This document shows positions 12,394-40,873 of a stretch of 64,000 bases of DNA, one piece after another. How positions within the stretch are numbered: the stretch's first letter is position 1; each line of letters opens with the position of its first letter. Made by a program: the position numbers and the translations under genes. Below the pieces are notes generated by a model. The model saw only the letters and a program-made list of their open reading frames with translations. It was not told the origin of the DNA and ran no database searches. The stretch is from an uncultured bacterium (GTDB taxonomy: Bacteria > Desulfobacterota_D > UBA1144 > Nemesobacterales > UBA2774), in contig CAWGRW010000009.1 in assembly GCA_963825135.1 (NCBI GenBank), positions 1,632,001 to 1,696,000 of the forward strand, read 5' to 3'.

Positions 12394-12466
12394 GCCCGGA
12401 TAGCTCAGTCGGTAGAGCAGAGGACTGAAAATCCTCGTGTCGGCGGTTCAATTCCGTCTCCGGGCA
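12394..12466 (+). tRNA. tRNA-Phe: tRNA-Phe (GAA), CCA not encoded
   Basis: Full cloverleaf: GCCCGGA/TCCGGGC acceptor stem, GCTC/GAGC D arm, GAGGA-CTGAAAA-TCCTC anticodon arm, GGCGG-TTCAATT-CCGTC T arm. Confidence 0.98.
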
Positions 12467-12613
12467 TTCACTTGCACCATTTATTACCTAGCCAGCTCGT
12501 GGAGCTCCGCCGTTTCTAATCTTATCCGAAATCCCGGGGTTTTGGCCGGCATTTGATCTTCTTTCATTACCCAACGTGTCCTCTTGTGAATATACGGTTA
12601 ATTTTCCATATTG

Positions 12614-12655
12614 TTGCAAAAATTCGATAGATATTTTTGTTGGACTATATATAAT
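12614..12655 (+). promoter_or_regulatory. Putative activator box overlapping a sigma70 promoter (copy A)
   Basis: TTGCAAAAATTCGATAGATA-16 nt-TATAAT. The same motif with the same spacing occurs at 25769. Confidence 0.55.
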
Positions 12656-12668
12656 AGAATGACTTTAT

Positions 12669-12728
12669 ATTATTATCTTCCTTCTCGATGATGTCGGCTG
12701 GATGGACCCTGGATTCATCGATGGAGGG
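12669..12728 (+). pseudogene. Relic of an AslA-like arylsulfatase N-terminus
   Basis: Translates IIIFLLDDVGWMDPGFIDGG. In-frame stop just upstream and no continuation. Confidence 0.7.
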
Positions 12729-12858
12729 AGTGGCTCTCAATGTCGTAGTGTCGGGTATAACGATCAAACTAGAATCTGCGATACCTGATTCAGAATAAAA
12801 ATTTTATTACTGACGAGGAACGTATCATCTTTAACTAAATCAAGGGGGGTAAGTTAAA

Positions 12859-37009: not shown

Positions 37010-37185
37010 GCTTTCATATAAGGCGGGCGGGTCATTTTGTCCCGCCCGTAACTACGCCTATCCCGGAGTAAAGAGCATGTATATCATTGGGGGTATGCGG
37101 CCTTATCTGGAAAAACAGTCGGATACCGTTTGCCGGCCGTGCCGGTGGGGGTAATGCCGTAAAGACAATAAAGGACAGTAAACGT

Positions 37186-38229
37186 ATGAAAGCGACGTCG
37201 ACACGGATAACGCATATTCTGTTCGTACACCTCGTGATTGGTATTCCTGGCGATGGCTGTGCTCCCGGGCGCCCGGGCCGATGCCCGGACCGATCCCCTC
37301 CAGTCCTGGAACGACGGGCCCGCTAAGGAGAGCATCGTAAGGTTCGTCGCGGAGGTTACGAAGGAGGGGGGGCCGAATTATGTCCCGCCTGAGGACCGGA
37401 TCGCCACGTTCGATCAGGACGGCACCACGTGGGTATCCCATCCCCTTTATGCGCAGGCTGTGTTCGCGCTCGACCGGATACGCGAGCTCGCCCCGAAGCA
37501 CCCGGAATGGAAGAGACGAGGAACCGTTCAAGATCGGTCATCGCGGGAGACCGGGAGGCTATGGCGAAGTTCGGGGAGTCTGACTGGGAGATGATTATTG
37601 CCGCGACACACACCGGTATGAGCACTCAGGATTTCCTCGAGATCGCAAACAAGTGGCTGTCCGCCGCTAAGGACCCACGCTGGCACAGGCCGTACACAGA
37701 GCTTGTCTATCAGCCCATGATCGAGGTCATGGATTATTTGCGGGCAAATGGATTTAAGACTTACATCGTCACCGGAGGGGGGCAGGAGTTCGTGAGGGCG
37801 TACAGCAACGGCGTCTACGGAATACCCCCGGAACAGGTCGTGGGTTCGAGCGTCCTGACGAAATACGAATACAAAGACGGCAAGCCCGTGCTGTTACGCG
37901 AGCCCAAGGTGTTTTTCATCGACAATAACGGAGGAAAGGCGATAGGCATTAACCTCTTCATCGGCAAGCGCCCGTACGCCGCGTTCGGCAACTCGACCGG
38001 CGACCGCGAGATGCTCGAGTGGACACAGGCGGGCGGCGGGGCGCGCTTGATGATGCTCGTCTATCACGACGACGCTCTGCGTGAGTACGCATACGGACCG
38101 GCCGGGGGTCTGCCCGATACGAACGTCGGCACATTCTCTCAGGCGCTCATGGACGAGGCCGGGAAAAACGGGTGGGTCATCATCAGCATGAAACATGACT
38201 GGAAACGCGTCTTTAAATTCGAGGAATAG
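37186..38229 (+). CDS. Secreted HAD-superfamily hydrolase (acid phosphatase-like) with three +1 shifts
   Basis: PLQSWNDG, motif I FDQDGTTW, IVTGGG and AFGNSTGD. Shifts at ~37230, ~37514 and ~37533. Confidence 0.8.
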
Positions 38230-38285
38230 CCGGCCCGAGCTGAATAATCGCGAAATGCTGCATGTGTTAAGCTTTGTATAGAGAA

Positions 38286-40622
38286 ATGAATCTCAGACGC
38301 GTCGTCTATTTTATAATTGCCGCACTCATAGTACTCGCCCTCGGATATTTCTACCGCAAGTCCGGTCCATTAAAATCACACAAGACGGTCAACTCCGTAA
38401 GCCCAATCGACAATACCCAGGGGTTCGTCGGGAGCCGTGTATGCGCGGAGTGCCACAAGGCCGAGTACCAACTCTGGCTCGGCTCTCACCACGACCTCGC
38501 TATGCGGGAGGCAGCGGCGGATACCGTGCTCGGCGACTTCGACGGGGCGGTTTTCTCGTATGAAGATGTTGAGTCCGAGTTCTATAAGAAAGACAAAAAG
38601 TATATCGTACGCACTGACGGCCCGGACGGGAAGCTCCATGACTACGAAATCAAATATACATTCGGCGTCTATCCGCTCCAGCAATACCTTGTCGAGTTTC
38701 CCGGCGGCAGGCTGCAGGCTCTGAGCATAGCATGGGACAGCCGATCAAAAAGCGAAGGCGGTCAGCGCTGGTTTCATCTCTACCCGAATGAAAAAATAAC
38801 GCATGACGATTCCCTCCACTGGACCGGTATCGACCAGAACTGGAACCATATGTGCGCCGAATGCCATTCGACGAATCTTAAGAAGAATTACGATTTAACA
38901 ACCGGTACCTATAAGACGGCGTGGTCCGAGATAAACGTTTCGTGTGAGGCGTGCCATGGCCCGGGATCCGGGCACGTCAAATGGGCGGGGCATAAGAACG
39001 GCGACAAATTTCCGGATATGGGACTCCTCGTGAGTTTCGATGAGAGGAAAGGGGTCGGCTGGACGATAGATAGGGAAACGGGGAACGCGGTGAGGAGCAG
39101 GGCGCCCTCGAACGATCGGGAGATAACCGTCTGCGCCAGATGTCATTCGAGAAGGAGCGCAATATCGGACAATTACTCATACGGAAAGAGTCTGCTCGAT
39201 ACGCACATCCCGGCGCTTCTCGAAGAAGGCGTCTATTATCCCGACGGACAGATCGAAGCAGAAGATTACGAATGGGGCTCGTTCATCCAGAGCAAGATGT
39301 ATCACAAGGGAGTAACGTGCAGCGACTGCCATGACCCGCATAGCCTCCAATTGCGGAAGCCCGGTAACGCCGTGTGCTCTCAATGTCATGAACCGTCGAA
39401 ATATGATTCTGCCTCACATCACCATCATGAAACGGGCTCGGCTGGCTCCGGGTGCGCCGTATGCCACATGTCTGTAACCACTTACATGATAATAGACGAC
39501 CGTCACGACCACAGCATCCGCATTCCGAGGCCCGATCTCACCGTCAAAACAGGCGCGCCCAACGCCTGCAATAAGTGTCACTCGGACCGTACGCCGGAAT
39601 GGGCGGAATCGGTGATAAAGAGTTGGGGCGGCGAAAACAAGAAGGGCTTTCAGAATTATGGGGAAACGCTTTACGAAGCGCGTAACGGCATGCCCGGCGC
39701 GGAAGAGATGCTCGTCGAGCTTGCGAATGATGCCGGTGCTCCGTCCATAGCGAGGGCAACGGCTCTAAACGATCTCGCGGGCTATCTCAGTCCGTTCTCC
39801 GTCGAGACCGTCCGGAAGGGACTCGGCAGCGATGACCCTCTGATCAGGGGGGCGGCTCTCGACGCCCTTGAACCGGCTCCGCCCGACACAAAGACCGGGC
39901 TCGCTTTTGGACTGCTTAACGATCCCGTACTCGCCGTCAGGGTGAAGGCGGTGACAATACTTGCCTCCTCGCCTCGGGAGAACATGACCTCGGAACAAAG
40001 AAAGGCGCTTGACGATGCCGTCAATGAGTACGTGAGGGCGCAGATGACGAACGCAGACCGGCCCGAGGCTCACATCAACATAGGGCTGATTTATACGGAG
40101 CTGGGAAGGCTGCCCGAAGCCGAGGTTCAGTATGAGACGGCTATGAGACTCGAACCTTCATTTATCCCAGCGTTCGTAAACCTTGCCGATCTCTACAGGA
40201 TGGAAGGCAGGGATGCCGATGGGGAGACCCTCCTCAGGAGCGCTCTTGAAATTTCCCCTGAGAGCGGAGACGTGTACCACGCGCTGGGATTGCTTCTAGT
40301 CAGACAAAATAAGATCCCGGAGGCGATGAACGCATTGGAGGAATCGGTAAAGCTAAGCCCCGACAACACCCGATACAGCTTTGTATATGCCGTGGCGCTC
40401 AATGATATAGGCAAAAAATCCGAGTCTATTCGTGTGCTGGAGGAAGCCCATGAGCGGCGTCCCGCGGACCGGGAGGTCTTATTCGCGCTTGTAAATTTCA
40501 ACCGCGAGAACGGAGACATCCGGTCTGCCCGGCGGTATGCGGAGATGCTAAAGGAGGTCTCGCCGCACGACCCGGACGCCGACCATCTTCTCGATGAACT
40601 TGGAAGGGACCTCGGCCGATAA
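38286..40622 (+). CDS. Membrane-anchored octaheme cytochrome c with HEAT-like and TPR repeats
   Basis: N-terminal TM segment; eight CxxCH motifs (CAECH x2, CEACH, CARCH, CSDCH, CSQCH, CAVCH, CNKCH); C-terminal TPRs. Confidence 0.9.
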   Translation: MNLRRVVYFIIAALIVLALGYFYRKSGPLKSHKTVNSVSPIDNTQGFVGSRVCAECHKAEYQLWLGSHHDLAMREAAADTVLGDFDGAVFSYEDVESEFYKKDKKYIVRTDGPDGKLHDYEIKYTFGVYPLQQYLVEFPGGRLQALSIAWDSRSKSEGGQRWFHLYPNEKITHDDSLHWTGIDQNWNHMCAECHSTNLKKNYDLTTGTYKTAWSEINVSCEACHGPGSGHVKWAGHKNGDKFPDMGLLVSFDERKGVGWTIDRETGNAVRSRAPSNDREITVCARCHSRRSAISDNYSYGKSLLDTHIPALLEEGVYYPDGQIEAEDYEWGSFIQSKMYHKGVTCSDCHDPHSLQLRKPGNAVCSQCHEPSKYDSASHHHHETGSAGSGCAVCHMSVTTYMIIDDRHDHSIRIPRPDLTVKTGAPNACNKCHSDRTPEWAESVIKSWGGENKKGFQNYGETLYEARNGMPGAEEMLVELANDAGAPSIARATALNDLAGYLSPFSVETVRKGLGSDDPLIRGAALDALEPAPPDTKTGLAFGLLNDPVLAVRVKAVTILASSPRENMTSEQRKALDDAVNEYVRAQMTNADRPEAHINIGLIYTELGRLPEAEVQYETAMRLEPSFIPAFVNLADLYRMEGRDADGETLLRSALEISPESGDVYHALGLLLVRQNKIPEAMNALEESVKLSPDNTRYSFVYAVALNDIGKKSESIRVLEEAHERRPADREVLFALVNFNRENGDIRSARRYAEMLKEVSPHDPDADHLLDELGRDLGR

Positions 40623-40825
40623 CAGGCATATCCGGCTATAGGCAATCTAGTCTGCTGAGGCTATGGATTGGTCTCAAAGCCGGAAAGAACGGACAGAATT
40701 TATCCCGCAAATTCCTATCCATATGGAGCAGATAGATAATCACATGATACGGATGGGCACTGTTTATTCGTGACTTGTTGTGATAATTGTAATTATGTCA
40801 GGAAGTTATGATGCTAACCTCACGA

Positions 40826-40873
40826 GCGCTGAAATTTTTGTGCAGGTGTCCGGGCTCTTCACTCCGGGAATTT
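40826..40873 (+). repeat. Degenerate att-like copy 4 (probable right end of the island)
   Basis: About 31/49 matches to copy 3 by eye (CTGAAA...GTG..GG.G..CGGG...CTCCGGG.ATT). Preceded by TCAGGAAGTTA at the same offset as in copy 1. Confidence 0.6.

Follow-up and report, generated by a model that had tools for sequence, protein, structure and literature searches.

Stacked tRNA-Phe attachment scars in an uncultured bacterium suggest an accretion-built island of decayed integrative elements with a sulfatase-rich cargo

Several described systems resemble the locus considered here, a tandem array of four sulfatase-bearing segments behind the tRNA-Phe(GAA) gene in a 64,000-nucleotide stretch of DNA (the window, G000:C9:1632001-1696000) from an uncultured bacterium. 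Integrons hold a polarised stack of small, often single-gene units. Cis-mobilisable elements (CIMEs) are described as elements without integration and transfer genes that keep both the left-hand and the right-hand attachment (att) site, attL and attR, and a three-step accretion at att sites is set out for them (PMC5704250). In Dehalococcoides, 15 of the 31 islands described at ssrA are without an integration module, holding 38 rdhA genes, and, according to the authors, the repeats differ from the gene at a conserved mismatch (PMC3146451). Integrase-requiring island finders such as Islander are described as rejecting stacks of this kind by design (PMC4383910). Among the literature matches listed for Dadabacteria islands, none mentioned Dadabacteria, and those for non-autonomous arm-bearing tRNA elements gave one general review only, neither of which shows absence from print.

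On balance, the four segments are best explained as what remains of integrative elements that inserted successively at tRNA-Phe, each segment being a right end with its cargo. They would work like CIMEs in a further decayed state, and we regard the locus as an additive, accretion-built island of decayed elements; the site is of a known gene-collecting kind and is not a dedicated sulfatase collector. As in CIMEs, integration and transfer genes have been lost, and the segments would be stacked at one target by later arrivals and movable with an adjacent active element, whereas only the right arm is recognisable here, and the lineage and the integrase clade are different (PMC5704250). The Dehalococcoides islands likewise stand in tandem behind one tDNA, are bounded by a 3' repeat and share a one-enzyme-family theme, but they are described with a serine recombinase (DsiB) and a 20-bp repeat at ssrA, and about half keep the integration module (PMC3146451), whereas the present array involves a tyrosine integrase family, arm sites and the anticodon loop of tRNA-Phe, and the module is kept in 0 of 13 filled closed alleles. 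The additive flexible genomic islands of Alteromonas are also fixed tRNA-anchored hotspots, tRNA-Phe being among the most used, with variable cassettes and partial tRNA repeats, although they form a descriptive class (PMC4898812), whereas the arm anatomy and a cognate integrase were identified for the islands studied here. In the tycheposon-built islands of Prochlorococcus, too, integrase-bearing visitors are transient, newcomers push older material distally and partial tRNAs remain (bioRxiv 10.1101/2020.12.28.424599); unlike tycheposons, the parent elements of the present array carry TrwB and Replic_Relax genes, and the array has no tyrosine integrase of its own at the tRNA end. The likeness to integrons, proposed in a preliminary description of the window, lies in the polarised stack of small, often single-gene units; there is no linked IntI, the sites, judged by repeat anatomy with no attC model, look like double-stranded, arm-type tRNA halves and not like attC hairpins, and the units carry their own upstream regions. 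The architecture, polarity and one-enzyme-family theme are covered together by the CIME, Dehalococcoides, Alteromonas and tycheposon precedents.

The tRNA-Phe(GAA) gene is the sole tRNA gene of the window and, according to ARAGORN, the sole tRNA-Phe gene of the 3.13-Mb, 94%-complete assembly searched (G000; relatives are likewise named by handles, G for genomes and L for loci or contigs). The repetition of its 3' 48 bp at 16725 (48/48), 19670 (42/48) and 22014 (44/48), stated in the preliminary description, was confirmed, and the best ungapped match to this core elsewhere in the genome was 32/48. In these three copies, a paired direct repeat (consensus CAAAGAATANYCAAAGAA) lies ~140 bp upstream and is followed by two sites near -58 and -30 that resemble the consensus of integration host factor (IHF), and then by the tRNA half; the fourth copy has both IHF-like sites and a decayed arm repeat. 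The arms of the copies are mutually distinct (55-68% alike), and the same arm was aligned ahead of 10 att copies in nine relatives, with further ones in metagenome contigs; that of the first copy is 94% identical to its counterpart in G003 and 92% to that in G004. A 25-bp tandem duplication, exact or near-exact, extends over the arm repeat pair of this copy (window 16550-16599, with the duplicate at 16550-16574). By their anatomy, all four repeats are interpreted as attR sites of an identified element family, the fourth only probably.

The fourth copy, at 40826, matches the core at 21/48 ungapped, a score attained at 16,778 genome positions and hence at chance level by core alone. A genome-wide search with a profile from the att sites of 14 relatives, without any G000 copy, returned it as the best match after the true copies (E=0.0028; arm alone, only E=0.9). 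Because of this profile match, the two IHF-like sites in register and its location, flanked by the cytochrome/TPR gene and HTH_3 and matching that of a clear att site in G002, it is probably a decayed att site. The core-to-core segment lengths are 4.26, 2.90, 2.30 and 18.76 kb, as given before, and shorter 3'-end repeats in the window were close to chance (9 matches versus 6.7 expected), with no signal beyond the four true cores. No left-arm repeat was found after tRNA-Phe or any att copy of G000, and profiles of the left end and of attL matched in this genome only right arms and tRNA cores. Thus, the attR of a CIME is retained in copies 1-3 (arm pair, IHF-like sites and core) and decayed in copy 4, whereas attL, present in segments of G003, G013, G014 and L081/L082, is represented in G000 by cores with no left arm, and for this reason we do not file the segments as plain CIMEs.

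An integrase beside a matching arm, which the preliminary description had suggested looking for, was found in relatives. In G008, the same repeat pair lies ~70 bp after tRNA-Phe, directly ahead of a tyrosine integrase gene, and a search of 101 genomes of the order gave five further integrases 62-67% identical to the G008 protein (G003, G013, G046, G050 and G052), all behind tRNA-Arg; in four of these cases the repeat is present with at most 3 mismatches, and in the fifth it is more diverged. The proteins of this clade are ~345 aa long, and their genes lie directly behind tRNA-Phe(GAA) or tRNA-Arg (TCG, ACG, TCT or CCT) with the left-arm repeat pair. Because the five target tRNAs have a common anticodon stem, where the identity of the copies begins, a crossover of this tyrosine integrase in the anticodon loop is the natural inference, consistent with the earlier proposal that the repeats are att scars of such an enzyme. 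The parent elements hold an excisionase-like HTH_17 gene, a gene for a TrwB-type coupling protein, a Replic_Relax gene and, in one case, an archaeo-eukaryotic primase (AEP) gene, and they are similar to integrative and mobilisable elements; their cargo includes defence or metal-resistance genes. The G008 integrase behind tRNA-Phe, with the same arm repeat, represents a related autonomous element at the same site. The distinction drawn in the preliminary description between its cassettes and remnants of autonomous islands has therefore partly given way, as intact relatives with their own integrase exist at tRNA-Phe (G008) and at tRNA-Arg (the other five).

Within the window, the reported lack of recombinase, replication and transfer genes was borne out: a six-frame genome search gave no PF00589 match there, PF00239 (serine recombinase) had no match in the whole G000 genome, and no replication or transfer family was found in the 54 of 118 open reading frames (ORFs) scanned. 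In the array, no integrase remnant was detected by tblastn with 15 queries, 13 of which were real integrase proteins, nor was any excisionase remnant found, and no member of the cognate clade was found in the G000 assembly. The closest G000 integrase is 39% identical to the clade, frameshifted and located at another tRNA; an intact one at tRNA-Met is 30-34% identical to the clade and scored 61 bits against TIGR02249 (integron integrase; cut-off 265). Viral contigs gave 0 matches to the arm-plus-core pattern, the T-loop variant described below or the integrase, and the best matches to the integrase listed for annotated phages were at 26-32%, with no close named relative among them. The only integrase remnant near a Phe att copy was in G016.

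We examined 27 tRNA-Phe loci, weighted to the same family, among which the stretch to the conserved HTH_3 gene was covered in 19 and open in 8. Six of the closed alleles were empty (105-232 bp, including that of the same-genus G005) and 13 were filled (2.7-28.6 kb); the filled ones had an integrase match in 0, a left arm in 1, a near-full att copy in 5 and PF00884 sulfatases in 4, while the open loci had an integrase in 1/8 and a left arm in 2/8. Cassette content, which the preliminary description had proposed to compare, is therefore polymorphic, with a fixed location, variable cassettes and empty alleles observed between species. The cargo in relatives includes transhydrogenase, arylsulfotransferase, multihaem cytochrome, metal efflux, GH130 with glycosyltransferase, and AI-2E transporter genes; sulfatases occur at the site in G007, G009 and G100 as well, and alkyl sulfatase and arylsulfotransferase in G012 and G013. 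Partial tRNA direct repeats follow the cassettes in G000 and in relatives, G000 having the highest att copy number among the 101 genomes. A pattern scan of metagenomes, in which exact matches were required, returned four loci, two of them the same locus twice.

Polarised acquisition had also been proposed. Segment-4 content lies directly after the tRNA in G007 and G009, and in the metagenome contig L080 a G009-type flank is displaced behind an attR; moreover, segment 4 is partly common to G001, G007 and G009 (79-90% identity) and has at least five breaks, whereas segments 2 and 3 are intact. Because of this flank comparison, the sharing of segment 4 within the genus and the distribution of breaks, an older age of the distal material and growth at the tRNA-proximal end are supported, and this part of the proposal stands. 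The gradient from a perfect proximal to a decayed distal copy does not: we rejected the mismatch count as a decay clock, as 48, 42, 44 and 21 form no gradient and most mismatches of copies 2 and 3 represent one allele that other genomes also have. The frameshifts in segment 4 may be pure sequencing errors, but the right-flank genes, covered over 16.9 kb, showed no credible break, and the flags listed there look, by inspection, like shadow-frame or gene-boundary matches.

In the accretion process that we favour, the integrase would cross over in the anticodon loop, each newcomer would move the earlier insertions further from the tRNA, and deletion would later remove the left end, comprising the left arm, integrase and mobility genes, so that useful cargo and attR remain. 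Excision in lambda-type systems usually requires both arms. The G000 segments are one-armed and therefore would not be excised singly by an integrase supplied in trans, but they could move in cis if the attL of a new element at the tRNA paired with a downstream attR. In G004, a tRNA-Arg(TCT) island with an excisionase-like gene at its start contains a tRNA-Phe-type attR with a full arm (L033:6783-11690), an arrangement that is no more than suggestive of cis mobilisation by an adjacent element. The locus is a well-resolved example of tRNA-anchored island growth in an uncultured lineage, for which the arm sites, the cognate integrase clade, empty alleles and parent elements have all been identified, and cis and trans mobilisation thereby become testable with synthetic parts.

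The cargo was as previously reported in that every segment has one or more PF00884 genes, with a hydrophobic stretch at the N terminus, from which secretion was judged by eye with no predictor used, and a Cys-type motif, and in that segments 2 and 3 contain one gene each. All six array sulfatases have the PF00884 domain and the Cys-x-Pro/Ala-x-Arg motif of formylglycine-dependent (type I) sulfatases, and they are all the soluble-type sulfatase genes of G000, the other two PF00884 genes over the cut-off lying in a neighbouring membrane module. The array is thus a real concentration of sulfatase genes, and all the soluble-type ones of this genome are in one acquired stack. Segment 1 ends in a deleted copy of the cytochrome/TPR gene that closes segment 4, and the gene neighbourhood of sulfatases, DUF1254, DUF2092, AraC, HAD and cytochrome/TPR occurs at other loci in G007, G012, G020, G023, G036, G045 and G100. 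Segments 1, 2 and 4 are fragments of a single gene neighbourhood found circulating among the lineage's islands, a derivation that would account for the sulfatase theme, and this neighbourhood has probably been kept by selection in this species. No G000 segment was found elsewhere with its junctions; homologues match at the gene level only (64-77% DNA identity), and segments 1-3 were absent as units from a search of the other 100 genomes in which only two candidates per genome were scored. In G006, a homologue of the segment 3 gene is adjacent to a tRNA-Gly fragment, again with similarity at the gene level only, and among the 80 of 331 homologous loci examined, 0 had the arm profile and 8 had a tRNA nearby. 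In a search that did not include radical-SAM maturases, the only match in G000 to PF03781, for a formylglycine-generating enzyme, was EgtB (C9:966243-967616, L233). The features of the array are listed in Table 1. A short C-terminal sulfatase remnant lies between DUF1254 and AraC (window 24500-24610), and 33-bp tandem repeats at window 28123-28244 encode a Gln-rich tract; the ORF in question matches no Pfam family, and a related G007 protein matches DUF6515.

Table 1. Features of the tRNA-Phe array and its flanks, in window coordinates
Feature	Position	Strand	Description
BBP2 porin gene	10822..12159	+	Conserved left flank of the site
tRNA-Phe(GAA)	12393..12467	+	Integration target; repeated core is its 3' 48 bp (12422-12469)
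Segment 1 sulfatase	12859..14580	+	573 aa, CTAGR motif; 48% identical to the segment 4 sulfatase at 35392
Small exported-type ORF	14718..15290	+	Interrupted by a single stop; relatives have intact homologues (57-76%) within the same cargo cluster; no Pfam family
Cytochrome/TPR gene copy, internally deleted	15538..16489	+	74-78% DNA identity to the multihaem-cytochrome/TPR gene 38274-40622
attR 1	16550..16772	+	Arm repeat pair 16583-16600; IHF-like sites -59, -30; core 16725-16772 (48/48)
Segment 2 sole gene, sulfatase	16917..19379	+	820 aa, CSPTR; best solved relatives are arylsulfatases 4cxk/1hdh
attR 2	19518..19717	+	Arm repeat pair 19529-19546; IHF-like sites -58, -30; core 19670-19717 (42/48), variant T-loop
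Segment 3 sole gene, sulfatase	19941..21713	+	590 aa, CCPSR; best solved relative is N-acetylglucosamine-6-sulfatase 5g2v
attR 3	21861..22061	+	Arm repeat pair 21874-21891; IHF-like sites -57, -29; core 22014-22061 (44/48), variant T-loop
Segment 4	22062..40717		DUF1254, AraC, DUF2092, three sulfatase genes, HAD (frameshifted), cytochrome/TPR (38274-40622)
Segment 4 sulfatases	28794-31367; ~31333-33981; 35392-36916		First intact; second and third frameshifted
Probable decayed attR 4	40718..40873	+	Core 21/48; arm repeat decayed; IHF-like sites -61, -30
HTH_3 gene	41081..41494	+	Conserved right flank; in empty alleles 105-232 bp after tRNA-Phe

Several observations weigh against accretion followed by loss of the left ends. 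The G008 element is interrupted by a contig end, no intermediate was found in which a given sulfatase segment is joined to an element bearing an integrase, and the autonomous stage is rarely seen, the integrase being present at only 1 of the 27 tRNA-Phe loci. Segments with both arms and no integrase exist at tRNA-Phe in G003 (7.6 kb) and L081/L082 (2.6 kb, with one histidine kinase gene), and at tRNA-Arg in G013 (Arg-CCT, 4.4 kb) and G014 (Arg-TCT, 11.6 kb); eight integrase-free left ends have in common a ~200-bp sequence (50-83% pairwise) across genera and targets; and a GH130 and glycosyltransferase cargo found in both G003 (Phe) and G013 (Arg-CCT) shows 85% identity, against a core identity of 72% between these genera. 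In addition, the variant T-loop allele of copies 2 and 3 occurs together with both arm types and has five different flanks downstream, whereas a crossover in the anticodon loop retains the T-loop with its downstream flank, so that a crossover further 3' or gene conversion is needed for this allele. It is confined to this genus, with five copies in 3 of the 101 genomes (including G002 and, twice, G004) plus L081/L082, and one of its flanks and the empty-site flank of G005, a genome in which the tRNA loop is normal, are 93% identical over 195 nt. The variant presumably lacks conserved T-loop bases, and because of this loss and because tRNA-Phe is the only copy, an excision event between the tRNA and copy 2 or 3 would probably be lethal; the allele might conceivably act as a ratchet that locks segments 2 and 3 in place.

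The same allele bears on an integrase-independent additive exchange, an unlikely but serious alternative of the kind known as homology-facilitated recombination, in which transformed DNA would recombine at two points, the bbp2-tRNA anchor on the left and, on the right, the 48-bp scar paired with the recipient tRNA end, so that donor segments are placed ahead of resident ones. The occurrence of the allele on five flanks would fit such an exchange, as would the insert of G007, at whose end a truncated DUF1254 gene runs straight into the last 14 nt of the tRNA, no arm being present, but gene conversion among att copies, or a deletion inside an attR, accounts for the same sequences. The genome has ComEC and DprA genes, and the array is flanked by type IV pilus genes, although competence is thus deduced from genes alone; and the bbp2-tRNA anchor is 84-87% identical within the genus compared with 79% for the pil region, although 79-87% is low for homologous recombination between species. 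The exchange is compatible with the accretion of integrative elements, and both can act together. An equally tentative view joins several of these processes: the att scars would still be working, two-armed integrase-free cassettes would be shuttled between tRNA-Phe and tRNA-Arg by visiting integrases, the scars would serve as right-hand joints for transformation-driven insertion, and the genus-wide T-loop-dead allele would be a ratchet. If the T-loop ratchet or the transformation route is true, it would help to explain the persistence and growth of integrase-free islands at single-copy tRNAs.

It is a little less likely again that the segments were non-autonomous minimal cassettes moved by an integrase in trans, the left arms in G000 having been lost only afterwards. 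The two-armed integrase-free segments of relatives, one of them single-gene, speak in favour of the trans-mobilisation proposed in the preliminary description, and a cognate integrase lies at another tRNA in G003 and G013; for G000 itself the proposal was not sustained, as the left arm is present in 0 of 4 segments and the 94%-complete assembly yielded no cognate integrase. The cargo common to G003 and G013 and the arm of attR 1, 94% identical to that of G003 compared with a core identity of 79%, would also suit movement in trans, but no G000 segment occurs elsewhere with its junctions, and the Phe and Arg cores differ, so that an Arg integrase may not act at Phe. The common ~200-bp left end, which also speaks for movement in trans, resembles a left arm fused to a decayed attR and may have arisen from collapse between direct arm repeats. 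Trans-mobilisation may still take place within the wider family. A conserved ~200-bp non-coding "empty element", consisting of a left arm and a decayed att-like core, was observed after tRNA-Phe or tRNA-Arg genes or copies in several genera (L112:1561-1881 in G021; L009:2777-3036; L035; L099; L104; L113; L080; L025).

A dedicated, integron-like platform for collecting sulfatases, also put forward in the preliminary description, is very improbable and largely refuted: the concentration of all six soluble-type genes in the array and the sulfatases and related enzymes at the site in other genomes would suit it, but 9 of the 13 filled alleles have no PF00884 gene and carry diverse unrelated cargo, related sulfatases lie at non-Phe loci in many relatives, and there is no linked integrase. 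That the repeats are assembly artefacts is hardly credible, since, although small variant contigs ~98% identical to the main contig indicate mixed strains in the assembly and no independent contig covers the whole array, the arms differ from copy to copy, contigs of three independent studies contain near-identical stretches of segments 2, 3 and 4, a 435-bp contig of an independent run bridges attR 3 and extends 34 bases beyond the core, and the same architecture is present in other genomes and metagenome contigs. For circles or empty sites in reads, low-depth contigs of three runs were covered; among the 10 listed there was no joint at an att copy, which is uninformative on excision.

Stacks of tRNA fragments were also found in G000 at Asp, Met, His, Glu, Arg, Leu, Ala, Pro and Thr tRNAs; their cargo is mixed and for the most part lacks an integrase, and stacking is thus not special to tRNA-Phe. 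The downstream fragments numbered four at Asp, two each at Met, His and Glu, and one at the others. The tRNA-Asp stack (C9:135746-152106, L083) had no integrase among the ORFs scanned, and the further stacks (L084-L093) are at tRNA-Met, His, Glu, Arg-CCG, Leu-TAA, Ala-GGC, Pro-CGG and Thr-CGT. L088, on the small contig C7 of G000, is 98% identical to L087 on the main contig up to tRNA-Arg(CCG) and then continues into another stack, in which there are three further tRNA copies or fragments; it is probably the allele of a second strain in the same assembly. In G047, a 2538-aa ORF with SpvB, TcdB-toxin-middle and RHS domains (L115:11758-19374) immediately precedes an Arg-CCT attR that belongs to the same arm family, and in L096, L102, L033 and L004 short units of ~70-90 bp follow tRNA-Arg cores or att copies and end in the last 14-17 nt of tRNA-Arg.

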